The position numbers and the translations under genes are program-made. A DNA stretch of 64,000 nt, from positions 7,808-71,807 of the forward strand of contig DAORIM010000001.1 in the NCBI GenBank assembly GCA_035438505.1. The letters are read 5' to 3'. Positions 21,027 to 39,469 of the stretch are shown here, in pieces. The stretch comes from Minisyncoccota bacterium (GTDB lineage Bacteria; Patescibacteriota; Minisyncoccia; Phycocordibacterales; Phycocordibacteraceae). The notes under the pieces are model-generated. The model was not told the DNA's origin and did not search any database. It saw only the letters and a list, made by a program, of their open reading frames with translations. Every line of letters starts with the position of its first letter. The stretch's first letter is position 1.

Positions 21027-21048
21027 GTCTGCGATACAGTACAAGAAG

Positions 21049-21125
21049 CCACCCTTAGCTCAGTTGGTTAGAGCACGGAGCTTATACCTCCGCGGTCCTT
21101 GGTTCGAGTCCAAGAGGGTGGACCA
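21049..21125 (+). tRNA. tRNA with anticodon TAT (tRNA-Ile, UAU), CCA encoded
   Basis: Cloverleaf: acceptor ccaccct/agggtgg, D-arm gctc-agttggtta-gagc, anticodon stem cggag/ctccg with loop cTTATAc, T-arm cttgg-ttcgagt-ccaag, discriminator A + CCA. Confidence 0.6.
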
Positions 21126-21130
21126 ATGAA

Positions 21131-21162
21131 AGAAGCCGGAATCGTTTGATTCCGGCTTCTTT
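21131..21162. terminator. bidirectional terminator hairpin
   Basis: gaagccggaatcgtttgattccggcttc + T-tract, between the tRNA (+) and the end of ftsH (-). Confidence 0.65.
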
Positions 21163-21176
21163 CTATTTACGCCCTG

Positions 21177-23684: not shown

Positions 23685-24094
23685 GGGGGTGACCGGCTTT
23701 GACGGTCCTGTACCTTGAGAGACGTGCGACGCGGTGGAAGTGTGCTGACCACCTAAAAACGTACACACAAATACTTGCAAAGAACACTCTTGCAAGCGTG
23801 AAGTCCCCATACTTCGGTACTAAGGACTTTGCGTTCGCTTACGCGTAAAAGCTTTGCGCTTTCGCCTAAGCGACGTTCATATATTCCCGTTTCTTCAGGG
23901 GGATGTATGGGCGGAATCTTCTGAAGAATCGGTATCAAAGCTCTCCTAGGCTTTGGCTTAAAAGACAGGATTAGGCAGGAGCGTTTTCGCTGACGTTCCT
24001 ATTCTCCTGCTGAAACTTCAACGTTAGCTACGCGTCGTAGACTCGCTCTGAAGACGGGATTCGGACCGGAGTTCGACTCTCCGCACCTCCACCT
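23685..24094 (+). ncRNA. ssrA: transfer-messenger RNA (tmRNA, ssrA)
   Basis: 5' end gggggtgaccggctttgacgg pairs with 3' end cacctccacc giving a tRNA-Ala-like acceptor stem with G3:U70; 3' T-arm ccggagttcgactctccg; internal Ala-rich tag-like frame ...gac ttt gcg ttc gct tac gcg taa; directly downstream of smpB. Confidence 0.65.
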
Positions 24095-25753
24095 CATTTC
24101 ATCGGAAGGCACGAAAGTGCCTTTTCGTGTTTTATCTGTTGGCTTTTTCGAGGTTCTAACTTTTTCTAGAGTTGCAGAGAGGTCCCTTCCTTCGGTTAGA
24201 ACTTGAATTGGCTTCTCTAGCTGTAAAGTCAGTATTCCCTGCTCTAAAACATGTTCCGTACCAAGAGCTGCAATTATTGACCTTCGCTTTTGTAAGCCGC
24301 CCTCAAGAAACTCCTCTCTTGCTCTCTCAGCGAAGGTTAGAAGTCGTTCTGCATCATCAATCCAGGTCTTGAACCTCACCTCAGTAGCTTCAATGCGGTT
24401 TTTAAGCGCTCTTTCATCATCTTCAAGGCGACTGCGCTCAGTTTTATATTCATCTGAACCAATGTCTCCAACTAGTCTCATTTCGAAAAGTCTTTGGAGT
24501 CTTTCAGCCACATCCTTTCGTCTCAGTTCATGAGCATAAAGTATGGAGTCCTTGTCAGTAGCCTCCTTTTCATATTCCTTCTTGAGTTCCGCAATTGCCC
24601 ATGCGTGGAATGCAGGGGCAATTTTTATCGATGATAGAAAGTCTATAAATAGTTCCTCAAGCTTCTTCTCTTCAATTGCCTTCTGCTTGCATGTACGGAT
24701 TTTTCCAGTGCATCGGTAATACGAGTACTCATGGATATTGCCATTCTGTTGCCGTTTTATCTTCTTCTCACACGTGATTCGTGCACCACATCCTCCGCAA
24801 CGCATGAGTCCGACATAAGTGTGCATGTGCTTCTGTGGTTTGGCTGATTTGCGATCAATTATCTGCTGAACCTCATCAAACTGCTCCTTGGTTATCATTG
24901 GGGTGTGCAGACCTTTGTACCATTGGGCTATTTCTGGGTACTTTGCGGGGTATAAGTACCATCCATAGTAGAAAGGATTCCTTAATATGTTGTAGAAGCC
25001 GTGGAGTGAAATGGGCCTCGAAGAAGGGTTTCTTCTGGTCTTCTTGGCCTTTAGCCCCCACTCATTAACAGCAAGGTCATATACCTGATGAGGGGTGTAC
25101 TGACGCGAGAGTATTGCATCGAAGATCTTGCTAACGATTGTGAAGTTTGGCTCGTCAACCTCGCACTGTTCCGGACGGTCATCACGGTATTTTGTGTTTC
25201 TGTATCCTATTGGAGCAAGACACGGCCTGAAGCCTCTAAGTGCTGCTCCTCCTTGACCACGCTTAATATTTTCCCTTAGCTTTCGTATGTACTCGGTTGC
25301 CATTGCTGTTTCAATGGTTCCCATTAGCGAATTCTCTTCAGCAGAGTATTCCCGACTTGGTGTCTTAATGAGCTTTATCGCTCCAGCAATACGCAAGTCT
25401 CCGATTTTCCCTCCTTCCTCGAGATTTCTTGCAAGACGATCATAGTCCCAGCATAAAATTGCATTGGCTTTTCCAGCCTTGATGAACTCGACCATCTCCG
25501 TGAATACGGTGCGTTTGCCTGAAGTAGCAGCCGATTTCTCTTCCGAGAATTCCTTCACTACGTTATAGCCTAAATCGAAGGCTATCTTTCTCATCACACG
25601 GAGCTGGTCTTGTGTCGATTCTACAAACTCATCCTTATCTCTAGCTTCAATCGAGCGACGAGCATAGATAACGAACTTAAAGCTCGCTCTTTCATCCTCC
25701 CTCTTTAGTTTTTGGTTGTATCCAACGTCCGACATATTCTTTTTTGAAAGCAA
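23999..25753 (-). CDS. large serine recombinase (site-specific integrase)
   Basis: N-terminal resolvase catalytic domain (FVIYARRSIEARDKDEF...TQDQ), recombinase domain, Cys4 zinc ribbon (CGGCGARITC...YYRC) and coiled coil; C-terminal ~30 codons run antisense through the tmRNA 3' end. Confidence 0.8.
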   Translation of the reverse strand: MLSKKNMSDVGYNQKLKREDERASFKFVIYARRSIEARDKDEFVESTQDQLRVMRKIAFDLGYNVVKEFSEEKSAATSGKRTVFTEMVEFIKAGKANAILCWDYDRLARNLEEGGKIGDLRIAGAIKLIKTPSREYSAEENSLMGTIETAMATEYIRKLRENIKRGQGGAALRGFRPCLAPIGYRNTKYRDDRPEQCEVDEPNFTIVSKIFDAILSRQYTPHQVYDLAVNEWGLKAKKTRRNPSSRPISLHGFYNILRNPFYYGWYLYPAKYPEIAQWYKGLHTPMITKEQFDEVQQIIDRKSAKPQKHMHTYVGLMRCGGCGARITCEKKIKRQQNGNIHEYSYYRCTGKIRTCKQKAIEEKKLEELFIDFLSSIKIAPAFHAWAIAELKKEYEKEATDKDSILYAHELRRKDVAERLQRLFEMRLVGDIGSDEYKTERSRLEDDERALKNRIEATEVRFKTWIDDAERLLTFAERAREEFLEGGLQKRRSIIAALGTEHVLEQGILTLQLEKPIQVLTEGRDLSATLEKVRTSKKPTDKTRKGTFVPSDEMRWRCGESNSGPNPVFRASLRRVANVEVSAGE

Positions 25754-25895
25754 GCAGTTCGTTTGCGTCCATCTGTTCGAGAGGTGTTGTGCAGATCATG
25801 ATGAGAATCTGCACCACCTCCTCTCGTGACATGGACTCAATTTGCTTAATCATGTCTCCAACTACATAGTCTCTTAGTTCTTCGAGACTATTCAT
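25692..25895 (-). CDS. hypothetical small protein
   Basis: 67-aa ORF just upstream of the integrase; no family. Confidence 0.25.
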   Translation of the reverse strand: MNSLEELRDYVVGDMIKQIESMSREEVVQILIMICTTPLEQMDANELLAFKKEYVGRWIQPKTKEGG

Positions 25896-26156
25896 ACCTA
25901 GCAGTAGTCATGTTGTACCTTGTGGAATCGCACGACGAGCTTGCCTCCCCTATCCTTCACGAATGTCCTCTTCCTTTTCGGGAATCCAGACTCCATGAGC
26001 AGACGTTCGACAAATAGCTTCTGTGCGTTTCGTGTTAAGTGATTAGATTCTTTTGGTAAGCGTTTCATATGGAGTTTTTGGTACTCTTGACAAGTCCTGA
26101 TATTTCTATCGTATTAGGCTCGTCTCAAAAGTACATATAGTTCCATATGAATGTGT

Positions 26157-26339
26157 TCACATCTTTTCGAGGTCATACCTTAGCTCTTCAAGACGCTCCT
26201 TGGGGTCCCCATAAATGGCTTTGTAGAGGTTCAGTATGAGCAAAGCCTTGCGGTGGAGTTCCTCATCCGTTAGCTCTTCCCCAAATTCTTGGAGATAGAT
26301 TTGGTGGAAGTCGTTGAGACTGTTAGCGTCCAGTGCCAT
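26157..26339 (-). CDS. hypothetical small protein
   Basis: 60-aa acidic ORF, stop overlaps the primase-helicase start (translational coupling). Confidence 0.3.
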   Translation of the reverse strand: MALDANSLNDFHQIYLQEFGEELTDEELHRKALLILNLYKAIYGDPKERLEELRYDLEKM

Positions 26340-28279
26340 TAGAAGATTGGCTCAGTGTCCTCCTGCACGAAGTTCACCTCTTCAAGGTGGTACTTGTTCT
26401 TCTTCCCCTCCTTGTAGACTGAGAGCGAACCTTCCTCGACCATGCTTCGCAGAGCCTCTCCGATGTTGCGGCTACCCACACCAGTCTCCTCACGGACGGC
26501 CTGGATGATTTCCTCATTCGTATAGTCCTGAATTTGGAGCATGGCGGTGATTGCATCGCGAGCCTCTTCCTTCTTAGTAGTTCGCTCATCGATACTCTCG
26601 TAGCGAAGCTCTACCGGACTTCCGATAACATCTGGGTCTTGAGCAAGTACTACACGAAACTTATTCGTGTTCCGTCCACGTCTCGACTTAACGTGTTCAA
26701 CTTCCAGATTCTGTTCGGACGTCGTGCAGTCCTTCTTCTCCACGGTAATGTGTGAATCGAGACGCCCAGAGTATGCTGACGATCCGCGAAGGCTCTGTGC
26801 TCCTCCACTAGAAGCACCCATGCCGCTTTTACGATGGTGGTGAATGAACAACACAGTTGCTCCTGCTTTCGTGAATCTTTGCATGGCCTCAAGTACCTTT
26901 TGCGCTCCCTCGGCAGAGTTCTCATCTTGGGAGTGCATGGCTGCGAATGGGTCAATGATAACCAAAGCAATATTCTGCTCCTTCACAGTCTGGAGCAGAG
27001 CCTCCATGTCTTCCTTCTTGTCTACCTTGAAGCCGTTAAGGCTGTAGAAGTAAATGGGCAGGTCTTCCGAATAGCCCATCACCTCCATGCGGCGGCGTAG
27101 CTCCCACGCTCCCTGTTCTTCGTCCACGATGAGGACACTGCCTTGCTTCGTCACGAAGTTATCGAGGAAGCTTTCTCCAGCAGCCACACACTTGGCCAAG
27201 TGGAGGAGAATCCAACTCTTGCCGCAACCTGGATGGCCGCTCAGCGCAGTAATGCCTTTCTCCGGTATGAGTCCGTACACGAGAAACTCAGGACGTTCTG
27301 ACTCCGGCATGTTGAGAATGGAAGAGACTGACAGAAGCTGTCGTGTTGGAGTCGTATCAGACACTTCCTTATCAACATAGGTAGTCCCCTCACCTCCCTG
27401 GGCATGTTGCTTCTGGGCGATACCGCGAAAGATAGACTTCACCTCACTGTCTGGAAGAGGTGGATCGTTCGCTTTATCGTTCCAAGCAAGTACCGTAGGA
27501 AGTACGAAAGTGTCCCAGTCTTTGGACGGCAAGTGGTGCAGGAGCTTGCCGACATACTTCACGGTAGAGTCGTGCCTGTTCCCCTCCTTCGCTCCTCCAA
27601 CGATAGCCTCCCAATCTGTAGCCTCCTCATACTTGGCTTGTCGCCTCTCTTCGATGTCTGCAAGCCACTTCGGCATTTGCGGCAGGTCTTCCGTGATATC
27701 GAGAGGCTTAATCCATTCGTACGCTTTGCCCGTCTTCGGATGAATTGAAGGAGGGACAACCACATAACCTCCATCAGCCTTCATGTCTCCATGAATGCCG
27801 TATGCTCCGAGCGGACCAGATTTAATCTCGTCCACGAGGTATGGATAGTCGTAGAAGTAGTGCCAGCCTCCTCCGCCCGTCCTGCTAATCGCAGTTGGTG
27901 GCAGTTCGTACTTAGACGGGTCTTCATCCGATTCGAGGTCAAGCACGGCAAGGCCATGAACATATCCCGTAATCATCCCCAAGCCAGTTATTCTGTCTCC
28001 GTAGGTCTTAAACCACTGACGCATCTCATCCGGCGTGGGTGCCTTACCCTGCTGAAAGTCCTTCCATGATGGAATGACTGGGACCTTGCCATTGAGCGGG
28101 ATGACCGTTCTGCAGTCATCTAGGTATGCGAGTGCTGCTTCTAGCAATGTTTCAGAATGGGAGGTCATCTTCTGTCTTGTTATCGGCACCCTCATCCTGC
28201 TTCTCGATGATGCGCTGGATAAGATCTGATACCACTTGAGAGTTTTCCTCTCCCCAGAGAGCAGGTACCAGCACCACAC
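26339..28279 (-). CDS. bifunctional primase-polymerase (Prim-Pol) / RecA-like (RepA/AAA_25) replicative helicase
   Basis: N-terminal Prim-Pol motifs (LDLESDED acidic triad region, GGGWHYFY); central P-loop ATPase SGHPGCGKSWILLHLA with VLIVDEEQG Walker B; C-terminal winged-helix-like tail. Confidence 0.7.
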   Translation of the reverse strand: MWCWYLLSGERKTLKWYQILSSASSRSRMRVPITRQKMTSHSETLLEAALAYLDDCRTVIPLNGKVPVIPSWKDFQQGKAPTPDEMRQWFKTYGDRITGLGMITGYVHGLAVLDLESDEDPSKYELPPTAISRTGGGGWHYFYDYPYLVDEIKSGPLGAYGIHGDMKADGGYVVVPPSIHPKTGKAYEWIKPLDITEDLPQMPKWLADIEERRQAKYEEATDWEAIVGGAKEGNRHDSTVKYVGKLLHHLPSKDWDTFVLPTVLAWNDKANDPPLPDSEVKSIFRGIAQKQHAQGGEGTTYVDKEVSDTTPTRQLLSVSSILNMPESERPEFLVYGLIPEKGITALSGHPGCGKSWILLHLAKCVAAGESFLDNFVTKQGSVLIVDEEQGAWELRRRMEVMGYSEDLPIYFYSLNGFKVDKKEDMEALLQTVKEQNIALVIIDPFAAMHSQDENSAEGAQKVLEAMQRFTKAGATVLFIHHHRKSGMGASSGGAQSLRGSSAYSGRLDSHITVEKKDCTTSEQNLEVEHVKSRRGRNTNKFRVVLAQDPDVIGSPVELRYESIDERTTKKEEARDAITAMLQIQDYTNEEIIQAVREETGVGSRNIGEALRSMVEEGSLSVYKEGKKNKYHLEEVNFVQEDTEPIF

Positions 28280-28373
28280 GGACCTTGCCGTCCGGCATTA
28301 TTACGTGGGCTACTGTCACATCGTCGTTCGCGTCGAGGAAGGCCTGGACTCTGTCTGGAAACTGAATTTTCAT
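28152..28373 (-). CDS. hypothetical small protein
   Basis: 73-aa ORF overlapping the 5' end of the primase gene; weak. Confidence 0.25.
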   Translation of the reverse strand: MKIQFPDRVQAFLDANDDVTVAHVIMPDGKVRVVLVPALWGEENSQVVSDLIQRIIEKQDEGADNKTEDDLPF

Positions 28374-28531
28374 AAGACGTTATCTTTACGGAGCAGGAGC
28401 TAATTCGTCCTGAATCCTGCATTAATCGTCTCGTTAAAATGAATCGAGGTACAAAATGAAAAACCAGATTTGGAAATGAAAAATGGCTCAGTTGAGCCAT
28501 TAATTTGCTTCAGTAATTCTTGCTGTTTTCA

Positions 28532-29323
28532 TTATTTCCTATAAGGCGCTTCGTCGGTCGTAGGGTTGTAGAATCTGTATCCCTTACCAGGAACGAGCAT
28601 AAATAATTCAGTCCCTTCGATCTTTCTGGGGAGCTGGAGTTTTGTTGCATTTCGAATGAGAGATTTCGCAACCGCATCACGAATCCTCTGTTGTCCCTCC
28701 TCTCCAGGCTTCGGATTCTGCCCCATCCTTACTATGGATGCCTCTATAGCTTCGTATGGCACATAGTCCTTATGGTGTGGAGCCAGCTCATAAAGACTCC
28801 GAAAGACGGCGTAATACAGAGACTTCCTGCTTTTGAATTTGATTTCCTTTATCTTGCCAGTGGTCCCGTATTCAAATGCCCCATCTTCTCTCATTCGAAT
28901 ATACCTGTATGGAGCATATTCATCCTTCTGGCTGAACATCGTACCTGGGACTTTGGACTCGTTCTCTACGCGAACGACTGGCCGTATATCGCGGACTCGC
29001 ACGTAAAAATAATTTGGATATAGAACTACATCATCCTCATCCATGCCTGTTGGCACAAATCCATTCTTACCCTCATCCTCATTTTGGAGGTACGTAATTG
29101 CATGCTGGGATTCGAGCCAACTCAGGTAAGCAAGCCTGTTCGATTCCATGTCTTGCTCTTCTGGCTCATTGATTTCGTGAGTCCTCACAGGCAAAGGGTC
29201 GTGAGTGCCAATTTCATGCTCAGGCATATGCTGTCTGCACGAATTCCAGTACCGAACCATTTCGGCATTGTATCTACGTATATGCTCCGTGTACCTGAAT
29301 GGAATATCCATGCAATTGTGCAA
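28532..29323 (-). CDS. hypothetical protein (island)
   Basis: 263 aa, no recognisable family; intact ORF with moderate GC. Confidence 0.4.
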   Translation of the reverse strand: MHNCMDIPFRYTEHIRRYNAEMVRYWNSCRQHMPEHEIGTHDPLPVRTHEINEPEEQDMESNRLAYLSWLESQHAITYLQNEDEGKNGFVPTGMDEDDVVLYPNYFYVRVRDIRPVVRVENESKVPGTMFSQKDEYAPYRYIRMREDGAFEYGTTGKIKEIKFKSRKSLYYAVFRSLYELAPHHKDYVPYEAIEASIVRMGQNPKPGEEGQQRIRDAVAKSLIRNATKLQLPRKIEGTELFMLVPGKGYRFYNPTTDEAPYRK

Positions 29324-29454
29324 GTACTATATAGATTGCCACTTTGCACAGGAAAAAGCACCCGTGAGGGGTGCCTGTTCCGTTGAGCCATATGAAACCA
29401 TTACCGTACCCTTAAACGTCCCACGTAGAGGCACGTGGAACCTCACAAGAGGTC

Positions 29455-29916
29455 TTATGCCTCCTCTGCTGGTGGTGCTTTGGTCTTTAAGGTTCCTCCC
29501 ATGAGTTCCTTGAACTCGACTTGGCATTTCGACATGGCTGGATTGAGGGTCATCATGACCGTAAACGGTGATGTCTGACCAGCCATTATCGGGTTGTACT
29601 CTGTGAGAGCTTCCGAAGAGTTCACGAACTGTCCGTCTTCCGTGAAGGTGGTACCCACTGCCGTGACGTTCTCGATGGACTTATCACTGATGTTCTTTAC
29701 CTGGCCAGTGATATGGAAATAGCCATACTCCTTGTAGCAACGGTAGCTGATGAGTTCGAGCTTGTCTGCTCCAGTAGGTGCCGAAGCACTAGGAGTGGAT
29801 GTGGAATCGCCCATGCTTCCGAGGAAGCCAAGGACAATAAGAATGGCTACTGTAATAAGAAGTATTTTCCCTATCCGATGTTTCTTCTTCGGCTCGGGAT
29901 TAGCGGTGTCAGTCAT
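29455..29916 (-). CDS. hypothetical membrane-anchored protein
   Basis: N-terminal TM helix (ILLITVAILIVLGFLG), Ser/Thr linker, beta-rich C-terminal domain. Confidence 0.4.
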   Translation of the reverse strand: MTDTANPEPKKKHRIGKILLITVAILIVLGFLGSMGDSTSTPSASAPTGADKLELISYRCYKEYGYFHITGQVKNISDKSIENVTAVGTTFTEDGQFVNSSEALTEYNPIMAGQTSPFTVMMTLNPAMSKCQVEFKELMGGTLKTKAPPAEEA

Positions 29917-30029
29917 AATTTAAGAGGCTAAGGATTATATGGATTATTTAGCCGTCTTAGGGCTATGTGGAAAAATATATAACAATATTGAAAATTTGGA
30001 TATTGGCTTCTTGGATACACGCTTTGTGT

Positions 30030-30251
30030 ATGAAGAAGTCCACCCACACTAAAGAATATGCCGTGTTTGTGGAACGACTTAAGAATGCTCGTTTGGAGGC
30101 AGGACTGACTCAAGTACAGGTAGCGAAAAGGATTGGTCGCCCTCAATCCCATATTTCAAATATCGAAAGTGGCCAGCAGAGAGTGGATGTAATTGAACTT
30201 AAGCGATTCGCTAAGTTGTATAGAAAGGCGATGGATTACTTCTTGAAGTAG
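30030..30251 (+). CDS. XRE-family helix-turn-helix transcriptional regulator
   Basis: Cro/C1-type HTH LTQVQVAKRIGRPQSHISNIESGQQRVDVIEL; start set at internal Met (MKKSTH...). Confidence 0.65.
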   Translation: MKKSTHTKEYAVFVERLKNARLEAGLTQVQVAKRIGRPQSHISNIESGQQRVDVIELKRFAKLYRKAMDYFLK

Positions 30252-30253
30252 AA

Positions 30254-30724
30254 CTAACTTTTGATAAATTCCACCAAAAGTGATCGGTACTTGTCTTGTA
30301 ATTCTCTACTTATAAGTGAGTCTGGAATTTCTGTTAATGAGGCTTCTTCGTTGAGTAGGTCGCTACATCTATCAAAATAAAAGGCTTCTGGCGTAGCTAT
30401 AAACATATATGCGAGCTTCCATCGCTCACATATTGCTGCTGCCGTTCTCCTAATCTCATCGCTATCTAGACGAGAACGATACTTTACCTCTACCAGGAAG
30501 ACCTCTTTCGGGTCATGGGATACGAGAGCAAAGTCTGGAGCGTTTCGAATATTATCCAGTAGCTCACGATCATTTATTTGCCTGGTGTATTGCTGGAGTT
30601 CAGATACGACAGACTCATACCCAAAAGGAATGACTGTGTACTTCTCAGCATCGCGAAACATCTGCTCAAAAACCAATTCCGCAATCTTCCCTTTAATTAA
30701 CTGTTTCGAGAAGTCCTTCTGCAT
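30254..30724 (-). CDS. hypothetical protein, possible PD-(D/E)xK nuclease fold
   Basis: Motif arrangement D...DFALVSHDPKEVFLVEVKYR resembles the D-(x)n-E-x-K restriction-endonuclease-like core; downstream partner of the giant helicase operon. Confidence 0.35.
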   Translation of the reverse strand: MQKDFSKQLIKGKIAELVFEQMFRDAEKYTVIPFGYESVVSELQQYTRQINDRELLDNIRNAPDFALVSHDPKEVFLVEVKYRSRLDSDEIRRTAAAICERWKLAYMFIATPEAFYFDRCSDLLNEEASLTEIPDSLISRELQDKYRSLLVEFIKS

Positions 30725-30726
30725 AC

Positions 30727-31611
30727 CTACTTACTCTTGAAGTTATTGATGGCATAGGACAGGATGGCACCAATAATGTCTTGATTCCCTGGTTGTGTGT
30801 ACTTAACCATTTTCTGCTTAGCTTTGTTGATTTCCGAGAAATAAACTCCGTTGCTCAAGACTTGAACATCAAGGAGCTTATTGAGCTTTATGGAGAACGT
30901 CTTTCCGTCTCCCCTAAAGACAACTCTCTTATTCGTTATCACCAATTCACCAGTACCAACGGGTACGAGTCCAGTCTCGCTAACAAGGTGTCCCCTAGAA
31001 CCTCCTACCCTATAGCTAACTCCCTTTGCGATTCTAAGACTCACTCCCTGCGATCCTCCTTCGTAACGGCGCTTGATGACTTTCTCCTCAATAAGCTGCG
31101 CTGGCTCTGCCCAATAAACCTTTTCGTCCTTTTCAGTTATCAGGTTAGGCACGAAAACTTCGGGAATATTTCCCAATTGAATCTCGTTCAATAGACGAAG
31201 TCGAGCTAGCTCCTTCTTATTTTGTGCAATCTCAACATCAGATATTCCCAGATGCTTCTGGATTCGAATCAGCTCTTCTTCCTCTTCCTTCGTAATCTGC
31301 CCGTCTGACTTCGCACTCACAAGTGCGGTCTGGTATGCACCAATCTTTGCGCGCTTTGTTTCTTCGTCAGTTAAGCCCAAATCACTTTGCCTTTTCTTAA
31401 GCTCTTCGACTTCCTTATCATCCAGTACCCCATCGGCAGCCGCCTCAACAAGAGACATTTCAAATTCCTTTTTATTCAAAGACCGCTGCTTTGATTCTTT
31501 ATATTTATCTGCAATCACTTGAAATATTTTCATGGTTTTAATGTTAAGTGTTTCTAGTCCCACGGCAATACGGGAATCGAGAGCATCCATAGAACTTGCC
31601 GAGACGGCCAC
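30727..31611 (-). CDS. hypothetical protein with N-terminal acidic helical repeats and C-terminal beta domain
   Basis: Repeats KEVEELKKRQSDLGLTDEE / KEEEEELIRIQKHLGISDVE; C-terminal GVSYRVGGSRGHLVSETGLVPVGTGELVITNKRVVF... possibly bPH-like; alternative start at 31533 would remove the overlap with the upstream gene. Confidence 0.4.
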   Translation of the reverse strand: MAVSASSMDALDSRIAVGLETLNIKTMKIFQVIADKYKESKQRSLNKKEFEMSLVEAAADGVLDDKEVEELKKRQSDLGLTDEETKRAKIGAYQTALVSAKSDGQITKEEEEELIRIQKHLGISDVEIAQNKKELARLRLLNEIQLGNIPEVFVPNLITEKDEKVYWAEPAQLIEEKVIKRRYEGGSQGVSLRIAKGVSYRVGGSRGHLVSETGLVPVGTGELVITNKRVVFRGDGKTFSIKLNKLLDVQVLSNGVYFSEINKAKQKMVKYTQPGNQDIIGAILSYAINNFKSK

Positions 31612-34600
31612 TTCTTAGAATCATTCTGGAACTGCAGCGAGGACAAACCTTATCGCTTAAAACAGGCTCAGGCTTGTTAGCTCTCTCAATAATTCTTTTA
31701 CCCTTACATTGCCTACAGAACCTCCCATAGCCAGTGATAAGGGAAGAATCTCTGAAATCCTGGTCCTCTCTCACCTCCTTACACTTCGGACAGACTTTCA
31801 TCTTTCCGTTCTGCAATCCCTGAACAGTTTCGTGAATAGTATGCAGGAGAGGATTCATTCCCGACTCCTCTTTGACTAACCTGCCAAGTCGTTGATTCAG
31901 AGTCTCAATCGGGTTCTCGCCTACATTAAAGCGATTGATGCGGAGGAATTTGTATCCATAGCTCTCAAGAACTTTCTGACGATATACATCTTCGTCCGAA
32001 TAATAATTCTGATAGTTAAACTCATTGATGACATCAACATCCTTGAAATGCTCCTTGAAGCCGTCATATTCGATAACGATCTTATGTTCTCTCCCCTGTT
32101 CGCTTTGGTACGACACCAAGAAATCAACTTTATATGCTGGATGAGAATACGTTGGGTCCAATTGCTTCAAGTACTTCCCAATTTCAAATTGAGGCACGAA
32201 TTCAATTCGTTCTTTGTTGTCATTCCAGAAACTCGTTTGGTAGAACCAGTTTAAGACTTCGGCTTCCTTACCTGACTTCTGGTCTGTTTCTTCAATACCC
32301 TTCTCCTTCTTAGCCTCTTCAAGAAGGTTAAAGTAATGCCTTAGAGCATCTCCTATGGAGCCATTGAATTTATCAAGAGGCTTACTAAGTACAAAGTGTA
32401 CGCATTCTTTTCCACGACTAAAGCCCACATTCAATCGCTGAGCTTTAATCTGACCGTCCTCTTCCACATCAACATTATTGAGGTCTTTTATGAAAATGCC
32501 CCAGAGTCTATCACTATGCTCCGAAGCTACCATTGGGTAGTAGATAATGTCCCTTTCCTCACCCTGACAGGTATCAAAAGTCATTATCTTCAAATCCAGC
32601 TTCTCGAAGTAGAAATCACGTTCTGGAAGCTTATTTATCATCTCGACCAATAGTTTTTGCTGGTTGGTATGTGGGGTAATGATTCCAACGCTCATTTCTT
32701 GCCCCTCTTCCTTCATCCGTTCCAATTCGGAAATGATGAACTCTACTTCTGCCTTGTTGGAGTTTGGGTAGACTTCGTCCTCTGGGGCGGCCTCTATGTA
32801 GGAAAACTTGATTACGTCGTCAATATTCTTGCCGCGTATCTTCATTACCTGGAGACTCTCTTGATAGAAGTACTTGTTCGAGTACGAGATTATTTCCTTG
32901 TAGCCACGGAAGTGTTTCCGGAGCTGGGTCCTGTAATTGCTTATGAACTCTACAAACTCAAGAATAGATGTCTTGATATTGAACTTTTCTAGCTTAACGA
33001 GCTTTGTACCCTCCGTTGAAACGTTCTCCTTAAATGAACGCTCAAGCATATTAAGGTACTCACGATTCGTATCTGAGCGAGCTTGAGCTGCCTTGATGTT
33101 GCTGAACTGCTTCTTATCTCCAAGGATAAGTACCTTCTTTGCTCGAAGAAGTGCCGGAAATGCCTGAGCAATGCTTACCTGCGAGGCCTCATCTATGATG
33201 ACCAGGTCAAACATTTCCTCTTCAAGAGGAATATATTCTGCATAGTCTCTGATACCAGCGAGGATACACGGGAAGGCCTTCTGAAGTTTGCGGAACTGCT
33301 CTTTAGGAAACTTCTGCTTATTCTTAATAACAGCCCTTAATGCCTCAGCATCGGTTCGATTGTGCTCATAGAAATCAATAAGCCTTCCATCCAGAAGATA
33401 TGCAACCTGCGTGATTACCAATTCTTCAATATTCTTCTTCCTCAATGCGTAGTTAAGGTCAGGGATCTCTGAGAATTCTTTTGTGAGCTTCTGCCTGAGG
33501 CTTAAATATCTCAATTGCTTATCAAACAAGAATTCGTCAGAAGAAATAATCAGGTTGCTAAAGAGGCTGGAGAATTCAGCAAAATCCAGACCTGCTTTCT
33601 CAGCTGTTCTCGTGTACTTCTGGGTGAAATCTCTCAGATAAGTAGTCTCCTCTCCGGCTTTTACAAACTCTTTAAGATATTCAGTTCCGCCTTCTTCTTT
33701 CAAAAGGCGGTGAACTATTCCCACGTAATCTAATCCCGTGGAAAGTTTTGTGTTCACTTCCTCTCCAAGGGAATGTATGTAATCGAAAATGGCATATGCG
33801 TCTTTCAGTCTCTGAATTTCCTGATGAGCCATTGCTACCGGGGTGCGGAATGCTTGCCTGAAACGTAGGTCTACTTCTCCAACTTTCTTTTTCTCGAACA
33901 AAAAGCCTACGAGAAAAGCCTTAAGGCTCTCATACTCTTTAATGAAGTCAGCCAACTTCTCTATTTCTTTCTTTGAGAAGGAATCAAAAATGGCTATTGA
34001 ATCAAGTTTCTCTTTGTATATATCCTTTAGCTTCTCGATACTCTCAGAGGCGAGAGAGAGGAAGCGAATCACATTCTCATAATCCTCAACTGTACCGATA
34101 TCTTTGGAATTGACTCCAATTATTTCGAACAGCTCCTTCCCTACTTCCGAGTCGTAAGCTCCCTTAAGGAGGTTGAGCGAAGACCGTGCTTCACTAATTT
34201 CAATAGGAGCCTCTTCAAATGGAAGGGCTTCGTTAATATCAAAGGTAAGTTCTTCTGTATTTATAGAACTCTCTAGGGCGACGAGTTCTTTTACTTCTTG
34301 AATATCAATGTCTTCACAGGCCACTACTTCAGCCTCCAGGTCTTCTCTCAGTGAATTTATAGACTTCTCGATATTCCCCACGATCACCTCATGATTCTTT
34401 CTTACCGCGTGATGGTGGGTCTTAATATCCTGGTAAGTACCTTGAGCAAGAATCTTAGCGTAAGTGTTTCCTGTCTTACCGAGTCGAAGAATTGGGTTCT
34501 GGAAGTTTTCAGCATTCCTGACCTTATTAATCGTCTGGGTAATATTATTTTCAACGACATCCAGAGCTTCTTTCTTATCAGACAAAACGAGTACGGATTG

Positions 34601-36106
34601 CTCTCGAAGAACGGCATCGAAGATAATGGCCGTAATAGTGTGGCTCTTACCAGTACCAGGAGGTCCCTCAATGACTAGATACCGGCATGAGTCTTTCCTT
34701 ATTGCAGAGAGAATTTGAAGCTGTTCTGCATTAAGTGGGATAGGGCTTGAAACTACAAGCCTCTCGGTTATGTCAGTATCATCCCATTCTTTCTCTACCT
34801 CTGGATTACAGGGTTCAGGGTTGTTATAGAGGAAGTCTCCAAGCAGCTTGTTGAAAGATTCGGATAGCAATCCCCCCTCCTCGCCAAGCTGTTTAAGAAT
34901 GTCCTCGTAGTCATTTACAAGAGCCTCATCAGACTTATCGAAGAGCGCTATATAGCAGGAGTTGGTAATCCGTACAGTTGGCCCTTTCGCCACCTGGGCT
35001 TTTTCCTCAACAAATGAGACATTACCCTTCGCTTCAAAGAAGTTGATTATCTCCGTTAATATGACGGAAAGAACTTCTTGAAGGTCAGTCGTGTGCTGAG
35101 CCAGATAAATGATTCGCTCTGTAATTGTTTGAAGGTTCCCCTTTTTCCCACTAAGAACATTGTTCTCCTGGACTATATATTCCAGAGCCTTCTTGTTTAT
35201 GTATATTTGTGAATCAAACTCTAGCGAAAGCACCTCATCCTGTCTCGTTATACTTATCGGCACGTAAAATATTGGGTACTTTGCGTTACCAAAAGCAATA
35301 TCGCCAAAATAAAGGTAGAAGTCCTGCTTTTCTAAAATGCTCCTATTGCGAGACATCTCAAATATCTCCGCAAACAAATCGGCAACCTGTAGACTCTCAA
35401 AAAAGGAATTGAGTGTGCTCTTAACTTCTGAGAGTGCGAAAACGCTCTTTAGTTCTTTCTCAAGATTTACTTTCTCCTTTGCAATAAAAAGATTAAGGGT
35501 CTCAGAAACCCTGCTCTCCACTAGACGCAAGAGCACCTCGGAAAGCTCCTCTTCAACCAGAAAAATATTCCCTTCATCCCCCAATGTGAGGTTCTGTAGT
35601 GGCTTATCAAGCTTTTCAATAAACGGGTCTACCAATTCGACACGGATTGTTGCTCGTGCTGAATCAATTGCCGTATTTAAGGCAATATCGTATTCCGTTT
35701 CGTAAAGTGTACCGAGCCTCTCAATATCCTCCGCGATATTCTTTATTATTTTGTTTATCTGAGCAGCACTTATTTTTTCGACCTGAAGCTTGACCAAGTC
35801 GAGTAAATTCTTAGGTAGCTTTGTTTGATAAACACCCTTCTCTATCTTACTGAGTACATCTCTATCAAAATTCTTATTAACTAAAGACCAGACTAGCTTA
35901 TTGAAAGTTTCGTACTTTTGAAGATTCAAACCGACAAGTAAGTTGTCATTGTTCCTAAATTTAATAGCCCTACGCGGCAATTTCTTCTTGTGAAAATCGG
36001 ACTCCAAGAAGTCCATGAAGTACTTTGCTACATCCTTAAAGAAAAGGAGTCCGTTCTCGGCCGATGGAGTAGGAGTTGTTTGCATGTCTTGAGTTAATAG
36101 TACCAA
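31544..36106 (-). CDS. giant SF1 (Upf1/DNA2-like) helicase with N-terminal DUF4011-like region, C-terminal restriction-endonuclease-like (DUF559/Vsr-like) domain and topoisomerase-type C4 zinc ribbons
   Basis: 1520 aa; Walker A GPPGTGKSHT, LIIDEASQV (AAA_11), TFDTCQGEERDIIYY (AAA_12); C-terminal HKIVIEYDGFKEHF nuclease-like core; CPKCKEV...CRQCKG and CPRCSSRMILRSGRLGKFYGCSRFPYCRGT zinc ribbons; AT-rich codon usage. Confidence 0.75.
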   Translation of the reverse strand: MVLLTQDMQTTPTPSAENGLLFFKDVAKYFMDFLESDFHKKKLPRRAIKFRNNDNLLVGLNLQKYETFNKLVWSLVNKNFDRDVLSKIEKGVYQTKLPKNLLDLVKLQVEKISAAQINKIIKNIAEDIERLGTLYETEYDIALNTAIDSARATIRVELVDPFIEKLDKPLQNLTLGDEGNIFLVEEELSEVLLRLVESRVSETLNLFIAKEKVNLEKELKSVFALSEVKSTLNSFFESLQVADLFAEIFEMSRNRSILEKQDFYLYFGDIAFGNAKYPIFYVPISITRQDEVLSLEFDSQIYINKKALEYIVQENNVLSGKKGNLQTITERIIYLAQHTTDLQEVLSVILTEIINFFEAKGNVSFVEEKAQVAKGPTVRITNSCYIALFDKSDEALVNDYEDILKQLGEEGGLLSESFNKLLGDFLYNNPEPCNPEVEKEWDDTDITERLVVSSPIPLNAEQLQILSAIRKDSCRYLVIEGPPGTGKSHTITAIIFDAVLREQSVLVLSDKKEALDVVENNITQTINKVRNAENFQNPILRLGKTGNTYAKILAQGTYQDIKTHHHAVRKNHEVIVGNIEKSINSLREDLEAEVVACEDIDIQEVKELVALESSINTEELTFDINEALPFEEAPIEISEARSSLNLLKGAYDSEVGKELFEIIGVNSKDIGTVEDYENVIRFLSLASESIEKLKDIYKEKLDSIAIFDSFSKKEIEKLADFIKEYESLKAFLVGFLFEKKKVGEVDLRFRQAFRTPVAMAHQEIQRLKDAYAIFDYIHSLGEEVNTKLSTGLDYVGIVHRLLKEEGGTEYLKEFVKAGEETTYLRDFTQKYTRTAEKAGLDFAEFSSLFSNLIISSDEFLFDKQLRYLSLRQKLTKEFSEIPDLNYALRKKNIEELVITQVAYLLDGRLIDFYEHNRTDAEALRAVIKNKQKFPKEQFRKLQKAFPCILAGIRDYAEYIPLEEEMFDLVIIDEASQVSIAQAFPALLRAKKVLILGDKKQFSNIKAAQARSDTNREYLNMLERSFKENVSTEGTKLVKLEKFNIKTSILEFVEFISNYRTQLRKHFRGYKEIISYSNKYFYQESLQVMKIRGKNIDDVIKFSYIEAAPEDEVYPNSNKAEVEFIISELERMKEEGQEMSVGIITPHTNQQKLLVEMINKLPERDFYFEKLDLKIMTFDTCQGEERDIIYYPMVASEHSDRLWGIFIKDLNNVDVEEDGQIKAQRLNVGFSRGKECVHFVLSKPLDKFNGSIGDALRHYFNLLEEAKKEKGIEETDQKSGKEAEVLNWFYQTSFWNDNKERIEFVPQFEIGKYLKQLDPTYSHPAYKVDFLVSYQSEQGREHKIVIEYDGFKEHFKDVDVINEFNYQNYYSDEDVYRQKVLESYGYKFLRINRFNVGENPIETLNQRLGRLVKEESGMNPLLHTIHETVQGLQNGKMKVCPKCKEVREDQDFRDSSLITGYGRFCRQCKGKRIIERANKPEPVLSDKVCPRCSSRMILRSGRLGKFYGCSRFPYCRGTRNT

Positions 36107-36222
36107 GTTTCTTCATAATTTAACTGGGTTCTTAACATACCACTTATCCAAAAAGGCCTTATTTAAAGGCTCTCTTTAGATTTCTTTGAGGTTTTCTTTA
36201 GAAAATATCCAGATTTTCTATA

Positions 36223-36741
36223 TCAATTCTCTGGCTTCCAGGTACCTAAAACAATGTAGTAGAAGAGGCGACGTCCGAATTCAAAAAGAAGAGCTACTGC
36301 AATTAAGTAAGCGACACTATAGAGCAACACTTCAATCCAACTACCCCTTGTTAGGGCAATATCTTCAATCTCTACTGAGGGCAGAGTGTCATTGTTATAT
36401 TTCGCGTCCAGTATTTCTCTTGGTGAACTTCTTACCTCTTCCTCCCCGCACGCTATCCGTAGTGTATATCGCTGAGCATTGCTAAGGGATTCAAGGCCAA
36501 GACTCGAGCTGTACCCTGAGAGATCGATTCGCTTATCTCTAGAGGCTTGGAAAGTAGAATGGTTCCCTCCTGTGCAAATAATCCTATGGTCCACGACGAG
36601 AGAGTCAGGCTCATTCTCGTCATAGATAGCTATGAGCATTACCAGAGTCATGATTCCAAAAAGACCGATATAACCGACTTTCAAAAGTCGATACCACCAC
36701 TTTGAATTCAGGTCTGCTAATGAATGAGGCTGTTTGTTCAT
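36223..36741 (-). CDS. hypothetical membrane protein
   Basis: Two TM helices (N- and C-terminal) flanking a soluble domain; 172 aa. Confidence 0.35.
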   Translation of the reverse strand: MNKQPHSLADLNSKWWYRLLKVGYIGLFGIMTLVMLIAIYDENEPDSLVVDHRIICTGGNHSTFQASRDKRIDLSGYSSSLGLESLSNAQRYTLRIACGEEEVRSSPREILDAKYNNDTLPSVEIEDIALTRGSWIEVLLYSVAYLIAVALLFEFGRRLFYYIVLGTWKPEN

Positions 36742-36879
36742 ATCCTTGATAACTAGGATACCAAATTTCTACTTGTTAAAGCTTGTAAACGTTTATAAAC
36801 GAAAGAGGTTCAAACCAGAGAGGTGGTTTTGACGTCGTTATGATTGAATCATTGGCTTTTACGCTTTGACACCCCCTAC

Positions 36880-37020
36880 CAGCTATCCACCAAATGTAAA
36901 AAATGTGAGGCTCTGCTTTCCAGTAATGAGGTTCTAACCTCGTGAAGCCACCTCCACCGACATAGAACTATATGGCGACATATAGAAGCATAGGAGAACC
37001 GCCTCATGGGCGGTTTTCTG
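36880..37020. repeat. island repeat unit A (GAGGTTCTAACC core + downstream hairpin)
   Basis: atccaccaaatgtaaaaaatgtgagg...gaggttctaacctcgtgaagccacctccaccgacatagaactatatggcgacatatagaa then hairpin gaaccgcctcatgggcggttttc; near-identical 3' half at 37705-37770, homologous 5' half at 41176-41235. Confidence 0.7.
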
Positions 37021-37046
37021 ATTGTCTAACTACGCACATATCATTC

Positions 37047-37607: not shown

Positions 37608-37649
37608 GTCGTTAGTATAACCCTGGCTGATGGTGGCCCGAAACTATCT

Positions 37650-37795: not shown

Positions 37796-37816
37796 ATCTC
37801 TCGTATTGCATTAGCT

Positions 37817-38881: not shown

Positions 38882-38882
38882 G

Positions 38883-39434: not shown

Positions 39435-39469
39435 AGTTGATACTTATCTAATAAGCAAACTAAGGAATG

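Follow-up and report, generated by a model that had tools for sequence, protein, structure and literature searches.

A predicted primase-helicase gene on an integrative element inserted at the tmRNA gene of a Patescibacteria bacterium

Results

Genes of the element

The window analysed in this study (the whole stretch of DNA, 64,000 nucleotides long) carries a primase-helicase gene on its minus strand, with several small ORFs around it and a gene for a large serine recombinase downstream (Table 1). An ORF at 26339-28279, the extent given for this gene in the preliminary description, is open throughout and encodes 646 aa when counted from a GTG. However, the gene most likely starts at the ATG at 28168, because the homologues all start at the residue equivalent to this methionine and because the public gene call for the identical protein (P0001) is 609 aa. 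This makes the gene 111 nt shorter; the first 37 codons of the 646-aa ORF overlap ORF-C, the 73-aa ORF upstream. Domain residue numbers in this study follow the 609-aa protein.

The overlaps of the primase-helicase gene with ORF-C at its start and with ORF-D at its stop point to translational coupling with both, and homologues of ORF-D (41-57% identity) were found in the same coupled position in L002, L003, L009, L091 and L092. ORF-E and ORF-F had no Pfam or PHROG match but have syntenic homologues in seven relatives (L002, L092, L006, L008, L010, L093 and L096), and they are candidates for regulators or for recombination directionality factors. The 3' end of the integrase gene runs across attL into the tmRNA gene. 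ORF-A and ORF-B also had no Pfam or PHROG match, and proteins of similar length occupy both positions in relatives, always preceding the primase-helicase. An exhaustive HMMER search of 1.84 billion proteins returned 8 representative relatives of ORF-B, all unnamed, and a word-based search returned only ORF-B itself. The Xre-type HTH gene is transcribed divergently from the string of genes that runs from ORF-A to the integrase and encodes a putative repressor of the module.

The cargo comprises a 156-aa protein with a weak match to TnsA-like endonuclease N, a 294-aa protein with a weak TerB match, a 1520-aa defence-like SF1 helicase with a C-terminal Zn-ribbon, and a 172-aa protein without an assigned function. 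PADLOC matches in the cargo were PDC-S37 (2.5e-43) and MkoC (1e-39), the latter a Mokosh-like helicase. Searches of the element's proteins against Pfam and PHROGs found no virion, terminase, relaxase, coupling protein or T4SS genes.

Table 1. Features of the element and its integration site, in window coordinates
Feature	Position	Strand	Basis or remark
Host tmRNA gene, integration target	23685..24094	+	ARAGORN; Rfam RF00023 at 111 bits
Large serine recombinase (integrase), 578 aa (public call)	23999..25735	-	Pfam Resolvase, Recombinase, Zn_ribbon_recom; phrog_95 1e-56
attL core CACCTCCACC, tmRNA 3' acceptor end	24084..24093	+	Empty-site comparison with L099
Integrative element carrying the primase-helicase	24094..36948	.	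Empty-site comparison; GC
ORF-F, 67 aa	25692-25895	-	Between primase-helicase and integrase
ORF-E, 56 aa	25898-26068	-	Between primase-helicase and integrase
ORF-D, 60 aa	26157..26339	-	ATG overlaps primase-helicase stop by 1 nt
Primase-helicase gene, 609 aa (most likely extent)	26339..28168	-	ORF; identical public call P0001; homologue alignments starting at Met; maximal ORF to 28279
Predicted C-terminal winged helix (H-H-H-beta-beta), ~aa 527-597	26378..26590	-	AlphaFold secondary structure; profile matches; HTH/WH Pfam of homologues
RepA/SF4-type RecA-fold helicase domain, ~aa 281-526	26591..27328	-	Pfam AAA_25; RSF1010 RepA; Foldseek 1nlf; conservation
PriCT-1 alpha-helical domain, ~aa 186-256	27401..27613	-	Pfam PF08708; model helices; 3m1m match
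Prim-Pol (AEP) catalytic domain, ~aa 1-165; motif I D77-x-E79, II H103, III D128	27674..28168	-	Pfam PF09250; pRN1 alignment; conservation; Foldseek
ORF-C, 73 aa	28152..28373	-	Stop overlaps primase-helicase start by 17 nt; weak same-position homologues in L009, L002, L092
ORF-B, 231 aa	28532-29227	-	Upstream of primase-helicase; fast-evolving
Conserved non-coding block between ORF-A and ORF-B	29311..29449	-	Nucleotide identity to relatives; alignment
ORF-A, 153 aa	29455-29916	-	Upstream of primase-helicase; fast-evolving; N-terminal hydrophobic segment
Xre-type HTH regulator	30030..30251	+	Pfam HTH_3 1e-12; PHROG transcriptional repressor/regulator families
Cargo	30254..36741	-	Pfam; PADLOC
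attR core, second copy of CACCTCCACC	36949..36958	+	Continues into the stretch found immediately after the tmRNA in L099; 10-nt repeat seen separately

Domain architecture and conserved residues

The fusion of a Prim-Pol with a RecA-like helicase, recognised in the preliminary description, is real and is supported by Pfam, profile and Foldseek searches. Two more domains were found, giving a four-domain order of pRN1-type Prim-Pol (AEP), PriCT-1, RepA(RSF1010)-type RecA-fold helicase and C-terminal winged helix. The Prim-Pol profile PF09250 matched over its full length (profile positions 1-158, residues 12-168) at 75.1 bits against a cutoff of 22.8 (1e-20). AAA_25 (PF13481) matched residues 278-449 at 128.3 bits against a cutoff of 27 (4e-37). 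The PriCT_1 match (PF08708, residues 189-254) is above threshold but borderline, at 22.7 bits against 21.1; this domain sits directly after the AEP domain and is precomputed in most homologues. Prim-Pol and AAA_25/RepA were thus the expected families that Pfam bore out, while D5_N, also proposed at the outset, had no match in the domain searches, the helicase being RepA/SF4-type instead. A profile of 49 homologues matched RSF1010 RepA at 1e-19 and the pRN1 ORF904 prim-pol at 4e-13. At the C-terminus the same profile matched the winged-helix proteins Hop2 (6e-5), Mnd1 (0.005) and MecI (0.02), and several homologues have precomputed HTH/WH Pfam matches.

The AlphaFold model of the monomer has a pLDDT of 88 over the full length and of 94.5 for residues 1-260, and the helical bundle at 186-256 is modelled with high confidence. 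The top Foldseek matches of the N-terminal part are the pRN1 structures 3m1m and 1rni (E 4e-8 and 5e-8, probability 1.0), of which 3m1m includes the pRN1 helical subdomain; the phage NrS-1 primase-polymerase follows, and CAPP and RepB' are among the weaker fold matches. Together, the model of residues 1-260 and these top matches support a predicted AEP fold. For the helicase domain the best match is RepA 1nlf, with a target TM of 0.74 and an rmsd of 3.9.

Conservation of the catalytic residues was counted over the 49 homologues, whose identity reaches down to 27%. In the primase, D77 and H103 are present in all 49, position 79 is E in 41 and D in 8, and position 128 is D in 37 and E in 12. Motifs I (D-x-D/E), II (s-G-x-H) and III (h-D) are all present and align with VILDFE, GGIHIY and IDL of pRN1 ORF904. 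A loss of these Prim-Pol residues, named in the preliminary description as the outcome that would speak against it, was thus not observed. In the helicase, K317 of Walker A (GHPGCGKS) and D406 of Walker B (IIDPF) occur in 49 of 49, as do G462 and S463, and R461 occurs in 47. An HHHRK motif, of the form H-H-x-(R/K)-K, and an RGSS motif lie downstream of Walker B, and the alignment with RSF1010 RepA (1e-19) holds motif by motif. Conservation of the catalytic and ATPase residues at such low identity is the pattern expected from purifying selection on activity. Judged from its sequence, the 609-aa protein is predicted to have primase, helicase and DNA-binding functions, and its winged helix is proposed to recognise an origin or other DNA.

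Boundaries, integration site and host

The element is a discrete insertion at the tmRNA 3' end. Comparison with the empty site of the related genome L099 bounds it at 24094-36948, or 12,855 bp, and its GC content is 44.6% compared to 54.5-55.5% in the host flanks, about 10 points lower. On both sides lies the 10-nt repeat CACCTCCACC, corresponding to the 3' end of the tmRNA. In L099 the junction is uninterrupted (tmRNA...CACCTCCACC|GATATAGAACTAT), and in the window its two halves lie 12,855 bp apart. Window positions 36949-37028 align to L099 (82.5%), beginning in the last 10 nt of the L099 tmRNA, and the insertion polymorphism is precise with respect to both L099 and a second related genome, L098. 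A longer duplicate of the tmRNA 3' end was considered as attR, but probes of 24-26 nt with up to 3 mismatches found none, and the boundary was set by the empty-site comparison. The predicted junctions are ...CTCGTGAAGC-CACCTCCACC-TCATTTCATCGG... for attP and ...CTCTCCG-CACCTCCACC-GACATAGAAC... for the empty attB. These clean insertion boundaries and the large serine recombinase agree with the earlier placement of the gene on a mobile element with a serine integrase.

Integrase-less islets bounded by related repeats directly adjoin the element at 36949-45081. An Rfam search of the islet repeats gave only chance-level matches.

The host belongs to the Paceibacterota/Parcubacteria (CPR), and its FtsH shares 89% identity with proteins of Paceibacterota encoded on contigs of ~0.6 Mb, in keeping with the very small-genome host that had been supposed.

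Candidate origin sites and circular forms

An origin-like iteron array had been suggested for the AT-rich region at 28.3-28.5 kb. In this region, Tandem Repeats Finder and repeat searches with short seeds brought up just two AAATGAAAAA decamers and a terminator-like hairpin (28482-28501), and the counterparts of this region in six relatives share no common repeats and align poorly, so this suggestion did not hold. An inverted repeat at 26064-26151, with 27-nt arms and just downstream of ORF-D, was set aside as a conserved origin; in L002 and L003 the genes leave no gap between them there. Neither iterons nor any other origin could be recognised in the repeat searches.

More promising as a cis-acting site than the 28.3-28.5 kb region is the non-coding block between ORF-A and ORF-B, which has 77-83% nucleotide identity to L002, L092, L091, L103 and L006, compared to 65-72% for the primase-helicase coding DNA. 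It contains a terminator-like hairpin followed by two TGCA-N4-(T/G)GCA boxes flanking CTATATA. A structured RNA was rejected here (-3 kcal/mol in RNAalifold and no convincing covariation), and so was a small gene, since no frame is conserved and the copy in L091 reads M-V-S-Y-Y-P-H-G-stop from ATGGTTTC. The block is a candidate promoter/operator and/or origin, and it may be no more than a promoter/operator.

An exact scan of metagenome contigs for the attP junction gave 0 matches, and a terminal-overlap test found no circular contigs among the close relatives examined. Over 182 loci this test was positive only for L170, a distant relative whose contig is circular, 6.5 kb long and also has an integrase gene. 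The largest gene of this contig encodes a 631-aa protein that can be aligned with both the primase and the helicase domain (27% identity, E 4e-31).

Related elements

The order primase-helicase, small ORFs, large serine recombinase, with the recombinase on the same strand as the primase-helicase, was found at 15 of 15 related loci examined. The profile search of genome contigs used 26 closer sequences; in a later metagenome scan, the matches listed were mostly distant relatives. The closest relatives, in other genomes, retain the same full-length module, and the variant P0005 is unchanged on 12 contigs. Cargo differs between the related elements and includes restriction-modification, metal-resistance and defence-candidate genes. 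The target sites differ as well, being the tmRNA, the 3' end of tRNA-Ala, or a position inside comM. In size the related elements are comparable to this one: L003 is 13.0 kb long and bounded by a 16-nt repeat at tRNA-Ala, and L006 is ~11.7 kb long and lies within a Mg-chelatase/ComM gene.

Discussion

The data presented in this study suggest, with a probability of roughly 70%, that the primase-helicase serves to start replication of an integrative, plasmid-like element of 12.9 kb whose host is a Patescibacteria (Paceibacterota) bacterium. In the model proposed here, the divergent Xre-type repressor would silence the leftward string of genes from ORF-A to the integrase. Upon derepression, the serine recombinase would join attL with attR and release a circle, with one of ORF-D, ORF-E or ORF-F probably acting as its directionality factor. 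The winged helix would then bind an origin on the circle, for which the conserved block between ORF-A and ORF-B is the best candidate; the helicase domain would form a ring and unwind the DNA, and the Prim-Pol/PriCT-1 part would make primers for host polymerases to extend. In this way the element may replicate autonomously after excision, which would maintain or amplify it until its reintegration or onward transfer.

Other explanations must be weighed against this model. The element could be a phage satellite, PICI- or P4-like, whose primase-helicase replicates it only after induction by a helper phage and which spreads via hijacked capsids. Its size of ~13 kb, the integrase at one end, the divergent Xre-type regulator and the primase-helicase module do recall PICIs and P4, and ORF-A and ORF-B lie beside the replication module without an assigned function. 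However, PHROGs and Pfam detected no small terminase, capsid, capsid-remodelling/size or packaging-interference gene among the element's proteins, the primase-helicase has no close relative in IMG/VR (best 29% identity) or in phage records (~25%), and the space outside the module is mostly variable cargo, all of which makes a satellite unlikely. ORF-A and ORF-B could also be structural proteins of an unrecognised small CPR virus, in which case the element would be its provirus and the primase-helicase its replicase. This would fit the hydrophobic segment near the N-terminus of ORF-A and the fact that genes of these two sizes, neither in any known family, always lie upstream of the primase-helicase. 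A provirus is nevertheless very improbable: nothing resembling a capsid protein, a portal or a packaging ATPase was detected, ORF-B has just 8 representative relatives, and the genes outside the module are wholly different between relatives, unlike a conserved virion module.

It is also conceivable that the locus is a decaying, immobile remnant and the primase-helicase a relic without present function. The adjoining integrase-less islets with related repeats (36949-45081) indicate that elements at this site do decay, and the attP scan of metagenome contigs detected no circular form. However, the genes of the module are all intact, the catalytic residues agree with the family consensus, the element has sharp boundaries, and its GC content still lies 10 points under that of the host. 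Additionally, the closest relatives keep a full-length module in other genomes, with P0005 unchanged on 12 contigs, and we therefore regard a remnant as quite unlikely, more so than a satellite. The last alternative is that the protein benefits the host instead of replicating the element, through repriming in damage tolerance or as an anti-phage system together with the defence-like cargo. Some Prim-Pol proteins have repair roles or are CRISPR-associated. CAPP structures were among the weaker fold matches, and a Mokosh-like helicase is present on the element. However, the constant partner of the gene is the integrase and never a cargo gene, the cargo turns over completely while the module stays, and the combination of helicase and winged helix is that described for replication initiators of mobile elements (PMC5862659). 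We give a host-beneficial role very little credence, on a par with a provirus.

The replication initiator of an integrative, plasmid-like element is thus the preferred reading. Genomes of CPR/Patescibacteria are ~0.6-1 Mb in size, and gene exchange among them is poorly understood. The element described here is cleanly bounded, apparently intact and equipped with its own primase-helicase, and related elements share its module, which makes it a concrete candidate vehicle for the defence and metal-resistance genes adjoining the tmRNA gene in these lineages. Also, the att sites and the pair of serine integrase and replication protein are possible genetic tools for organisms that have almost none. 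A wider proposal, which we put forward tentatively and with more doubt than conviction, is that the element in the window belongs to a lineage, as yet undescribed and spread across the Patescibacteria, of integrative elements of ~12-13 kb that replicate themselves. Such elements would share an invariant module of primase-helicase, small ORFs and large serine recombinase, insert at the 3' ends of tmRNA and tRNA-Ala or in comM, move cargo for defence, restriction-modification and metal resistance between genomes, and leave behind islets without an integrase in tandem arrays. If this is true, they may be one of the main routes by which ultra-small symbiotic bacteria without conjugation machinery exchange genes.

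Comparison with known systems

The closest solved relative of the Prim-Pol is that of ORF904 from the Sulfolobus plasmid pRN1 (profile E 4e-13, Foldseek E ~5e-8). The catalytic D-x-E, H and D align, and both proteins combine a primase, a helper helical domain, a helicase and a DNA-binding winged helix. However, the helicase of ORF904 is an SF3 helicase, whereas the one here is of the RecA-fold RepA/SF4 type (AAA_25). The setting also differs, with an archaeal host for pRN1 and, here, a CPR bacterium and an element that uses a serine recombinase for integration. The hexameric helicase RepA of RSF1010 is the best match in both sequence and structure for residues ~281-526, with Walker A, Walker B and RGSS aligned at an identity of only ~14-15%. 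On RSF1010, helicase, primase (RepB') and iteron-binding initiator (RepC) are three distinct proteins; in the element the three functions appear to be fused into one.

The AEP-PriCT-RepA helicase-WH architecture is not new. It has been described for replication proteins of mobile elements, with the winged helix proposed to recognise origins (PMC5862659), as the preliminary description implied in calling the fusion typical of such proteins. Bacterial AEP families such as PrimQH have the same order of primase, PriCT-1, RepA-type P-loop helicase and C-terminal winged helix, and their genes likewise lie in mobile elements that have integrated (Kazlauskas et al. 2018, PMC5862659), whereas the protein here scores as a classical, pRN1-like Prim-Pol (PF09250). 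Parcubacteria are mentioned 0 times in that paper. PICI/SaPI and P4 satellites, with a Pri-Rep or alpha primase-helicase and an integrase, resemble the element in size, terminal integrase, divergent regulator and primase-helicase initiator, but the element has no packaging or helper-interference genes and its primase-helicase reaches ~25% identity at best in phage records. The absence of a relaxase, coupling protein and T4SS among the element's ORFs (Pfam) sets it apart from integrative conjugative or mobilisable elements.

The tycheposons of Prochlorococcus (bioRxiv 10.1101/2020.12.28.424599) also live in hosts with streamlined genomes, are 10-20 kb long and target tRNA and tmRNA genes. They likewise have a small primase/helicase replication module beside a site-specific integrase, variable adaptive or defence cargo, and islands with tandem junctions. 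However, tycheposons are marked out by a tyrosine recombinase that is specific to their lineage and points inward from the end of the element (bioRxiv 10.1101/2020.12.28.424599), whereas the element here has a large serine recombinase with its 3' end directed outward across attL, and the hosts and proteins are unrelated. Should the proposed Patescibacteria-wide lineage exist, its elements would correspond in function to the tycheposons of Prochlorococcus, with a serine recombinase as their basis.

Boundaries and gene content of the element

A gene for a large serine recombinase adjoins the tmRNA gene in the window, and its reading frame enters that gene (table). GC content falls from about 0.55 to 0.39-0.53 across 24-44 kb, and the window holds no second long copy of the tmRNA end. 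The extent of the inserted DNA was defined by comparison with two related genomes. In L098, a 622-kb contig of GCA_036405415.1, the homologue of window position 45082 starts 57 bp past the tmRNA end. Since the tmRNA end and this homologue are nearly joined there, the whole of 24093-45081 is extra DNA in the window. In L099, a 591-kb contig (ERZ650241 NODE_1), the tmRNA end ...CTCTCCGCACCTCCACC passes directly into GATATAGAACTATGTAG..., the homologue of window 36949-37028 (CACCTCCACC GACATAGAACTATATGG...). Because this uninterrupted junction matches the window sequences on either side of 24094-36948, that stretch (12,855 bp, 44.6% GC) is a single, discrete insertion with the 10-nt repeat CACCTCCACC on both flanks (24084-24093 and 36949-36958). 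These comparisons bear out the earlier proposal of a mobile element with a serine integrase.

The integrase frame ends within the target RNA gene both in the window and in the related loci L003, L091, L092 and L095, where the target is tRNA-Ala(TGC), so the att site lies across the 3' end of the integrase gene. The two kinds of target would be linked by the resemblance of the tRNA-like domain of tmRNA to tRNA-Ala.

Genes of the element, with the target gene and the repeats of the adjoining islets
Feature	Position	Strand	Description
tmRNA gene	23685-24094		target
Integrase	23999-25735	-	large serine recombinase
ORF-F	25692-25895	-	67 aa
ORF-E	25898-26068	-	56 aa
ORF-D	26157-26339	-	60 aa; start overlaps primase-helicase stop by 1 nt
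Primase-helicase	26339-28168	-	609 aa
ORF-C	28152-28373	-	73 aa; stop overlaps primase-helicase start
ORF-B	28532-29227	-	231 aa; no annotation
ORF-A	29455-29916	-	153 aa; N-terminus hydrophobic
Xre-type HTH	30030-30251	+	transcribed divergently
Cargo	30254-30724	-	156 aa; weak TnsA-like match
Cargo	30727-31611	-	294 aa; weak TerB match
Cargo	31544-36106	-	1520 aa; SF1 helicase (AAA_11/AAA_12), C-terminal topoisomerase-type Zn-ribbon
Cargo	36223-36741	-	172 aa; no annotation
86-nt repeats	36872, 37647, 41167; 43405 (partial)		

The SF1 helicase is the main cargo, and in PADLOC it matched PDC-S37 (2.5e-43) and Mokosh MkoC (1e-39) and MkoA. Annotation of the element's proteins with Pfam, PHROGs and PADLOC gave no match to capsid, portal, terminase, tail, relaxase or T4SS proteins.

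Genes flanking the element in the window include those for RecG, FtsH and SmpB as well as the tmRNA gene. The FtsH sequence shares 85-91% identity with proteins labelled Candidatus Paceibacterota, Patescibacteria group or Parcubacteria; several of these come from contigs of 0.59-0.69 Mb, which confirms the small-genome host assumed in the preliminary description. The window also holds a tRNA-Ile gene with anticodon TAT (21049-21125), which is uncommon in bacteria, where AUA is usually decoded by a modified CAU anticodon. Two neighbouring copies of a sequence of about 90-100 nt (3509-3611 and 4049-4154) match several places in L099 (77-90%) in or near genes with an N_methyl (type IV pilin-like) domain, and probably represent 5' ends conserved among pilin-like genes.

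Islets downstream of the element

The remaining extra DNA, 36949-45081, is a tandem string of integrase-less islets divided by related 86-nt repeats, in each of which the T-arm-like hairpin GAGGTTCTAACCTC precedes CCAC(C/T)TCCACC. L099 has its own repeat of this type and DUF305 genes after the tmRNA. The 11-mer GAGGTTCTAAC occurs seven times (<=1 mismatch). Every copy is in plus-strand orientation and within 24150-43430, and 0 of 100 shuffles matched this count; two copies (24150 and 41100) lie outside the 86-nt repeats. This 11-mer could be a site for the recombinase or an accessory protein. We interpret the islets and their repeats as scars left by related integrations that occurred at this site before.

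One islet, outside the element itself, carries a candidate defence system gene pair found by PADLOC (42167-43371; PDC-M04A, 4e-96, DUF3800, and PDC-M04B, 3e-60). Another, of higher GC (0.51-0.55), carries DUF411, two DUF305 and DUF4396 genes (38219-41116), a cluster that probably functions in copper or metal handling. An inverted repeat whose 22-nt arms match perfectly across a 5-nt spacer (41992-42040) lies between or within small islet ORFs.

The primase-helicase gene and protein

At its longest, the minus-strand ORF spans 28279 to 26339 (646 aa, GTG start), and its first 37 codons overlap ORF-C upstream. In alignments, the residue matching ATG 28168 is the first residue of all homologues, and the public gene call for an identical protein (P0001, JGI contig Ga0119868_1000037, 84 kb) has 609 aa. 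On these grounds the gene is taken to start at 28168, and residue numbers below refer to the 609-aa product; the ORF reported previously therefore stands, though not its start at 28279.

The protein is composed of Prim-Pol, PriCT-1, a RepA-type helicase and a winged helix. Pfam detected Prim-Pol PF09250 (75.1 bits, cutoff 22.8), PriCT_1 (22.7 bits, cutoff 21.1) and AAA_25 (128.3 bits, cutoff 27), and the PHROGs matches were to DNA polymerase/primase, DNA primase and primase/helicase families. With the single sequence as query, RSF1010 RepA was the only PDB match. A profile of 49 homologues matched RepA (1e-19), the pRN1 ORF904 prim-pol (4e-13 to 4e-12) and also Twinkle, and for the last 70 residues it matched the winged-helix proteins Hop2 (6e-5), Mnd1 (0.005) and MecI (0.02).

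At the residue level, VLD77-L-E79 aligns to VILDFE of pRN1, GGGGWH103 to HGGIH and GD128 to ID(L), and the Walker A, Walker B and RGSS motifs align with their RepA counterparts. Among the 49 homologues, with identity as low as 27%, D77 (AEP motif I) and H103 (motif II) are invariant, and E79 (motif I; E in 41, D in 8) and D128 (motif III; D in 37, E in 12) are acidic throughout. In the helicase, K317 (Walker A), D406 (Walker B), H444 and K447 (HHHRK motif) and G462 and S463 (RGSS motif) are each present in 49/49 and R461 (RGSS motif) in 47/49.

The full-length AlphaFold model (pLDDT 88.3) is divided into two halves by a predicted disordered linker (261-272), and its C-terminus is modelled as a winged helix folding helix-helix-helix-strand-strand. 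RecA-fold proteins dominated the Foldseek matches of the full model, with RepA (1nlf) superposing best (target TM 0.74, rmsd 3.9). When residues 1-260 were modelled separately (pLDDT 94.5), pRN1 structures ranked first (3m1m, 1rni, 1ro0 and a recent complex of the pRN1 primase), and the phage NrS-1 primase-polymerase, CAPP and RepB' came next. Pfam, profile, alignment and fold matches thus agree on the fusion of Prim-Pol to a RecA-like helicase. The catalytic residues of Prim-Pol, whose loss had been named as grounds against this assignment, are retained according to the alignments, the conservation and the models.

A recurrent module in CPR bacteria

A word-based search found 231 homologues of the primase-helicase, and the named ones at >=40% identity are all from CPR bacteria (Paceibacterota, Parcubacteria, Taylorbacteria and Curtissbacteria). 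A genome scan found 7 loci in CPR assemblies (Saccharibacteria-labelled, Parcubacteria, Taylorbacteria and Nomurabacteria) or one unclassified 'bacterium'. No close relative was present in IMG/VR (at most 29% identity) or in phage records (about 25%), and matches in plasmid records were partial only (at most 34%).

At all 15 loci with downstream sequence (the window, L002, L003, L006, L008, L009, L010, L091-L096, L100 and L102), a large serine recombinase lies 3' of the primase-helicase, on the same strand and within about 1.1 kb, and ORF-D, ORF-E and ORF-F have syntenic homologues among the related loci. The cargo is unrelated from element to element: L003 carries an AAA_15 ATPase along with various enzymes; L006, L008, L010 and L100 carry methyltransferases or restriction-modification genes; and L002 carries heavy-metal efflux and Dsb genes. 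The primase-helicase/integrase module is therefore invariant and the cargo variable. Target sites vary too, among the tmRNA and tRNA-Ala(TGC) genes named above and a Mg-chelatase/ComM gene, which is interrupted by the element in L006 (about 11.7 kb) and L008. The L003 element is 13.0 kb long and bounded by a 16-nt repeat.

The L002 cargo (DUF305, cation efflux, DsbA/B and P-type ATPase) is related to the islet cluster at 38219-41116. L002 also has a second, different Prim-Pol gene (20217-21824; 730 aa, incomplete at the end of the locus), accompanied by a separate Xre-type HTH. It lies about 8 kb downstream of that genome's first element, which suggests that two replicative elements are adjacent here.

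Candidate cis-acting sites and circular forms

The preliminary description had named the region at 28.3-28.5 kb as a candidate for an iteron-type origin, which these data do not support. The region 28374-28531 (GC 0.37) contains no repeat array; it has a terminator-like hairpin at 28482-28501 and the decamer AAATGAAAAA in two copies, and no repeats are shared among the equivalent regions of relatives. A better candidate is the non-coding block 29311-29449, which has 77-83% nucleotide identity to L002, L092, L091, L103 and L006, whereas primase-helicase coding DNA has 65-72%. It contains a hairpin with a T-run, then TGCAAAGTGGCA, CTATATA and TGCACAATTGCA, a layout of two TGCA-N4-(T/G)GCA boxes on either side of CTATATA. 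The alignment of this block showed neither RNA covariation nor a conserved reading frame. From these sequence features, we propose that the block may be the promoter/operator of the gene string from ORF-B to the integrase and is the best current origin candidate.

Metagenome contigs scanned for an exact copy of the predicted attP junction gave no match, and contigs of close relatives showed no terminal overlap. The distant relative L170 (Ga0247721_100998) is a circular 6,522-bp contig with a 127-nt terminal overlap; its largest gene encodes a 631-aa protein whose alignment to the window's protein (27% identity, E 4e-31) takes in the primase and the helicase domain, and the contig also encodes a tyrosine integrase. 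A related primase-helicase thus occurs on a small circular integrase-bearing replicon, a result that extends to this distant relative only.

Discussion

The domain make-up and conserved active sites of the primase-helicase, and site-specific insertion of the element with defined att sites, are established here. The original finding is real and its interpretation correct. In the life cycle that we infer, the Xre-type repressor would control the element, and the serine recombinase, aided by a small directionality factor, would excise it. The winged helix may then bind the origin, the ring helicase would load and unwind the DNA, Prim-Pol/PriCT-1 would prime synthesis for extension by host polymerases, and the element would reintegrate.

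The primase-helicase belongs to a well-known kind of mobile-element replication protein, and the AEP-PriCT-RepA helicase-WH layout has already been described on integrated mobile elements (Kazlauskas et al. 2018, PMC5862659). Among the papers searched in full text, none described its CPR family, which is weak evidence of novelty. New here are the exact boundaries of the element, the recurrent CPR-wide primase-helicase/serine-integrase module and the better candidate for a cis-acting site. The interest would be greater if excision and replication prove true and the family is a main vehicle of gene transfer in CPR bacteria.

The closest solved parts of the protein are pRN1 ORF904 and RSF1010 RepA. 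As for the whole element, it has no packaging genes, unlike PICI/P4, and no relaxase or T4SS, unlike ICE/IME, and so belongs to neither group. Its nearest analogue is the tycheposons and related cryptic elements of Prochlorococcus. Although the tyrosine recombinase and inward orientation that define tycheposons are absent, the element resembles them in its tRNA/tmRNA targets, its small replication module beside the integrase, its cargo and its streamlined host.
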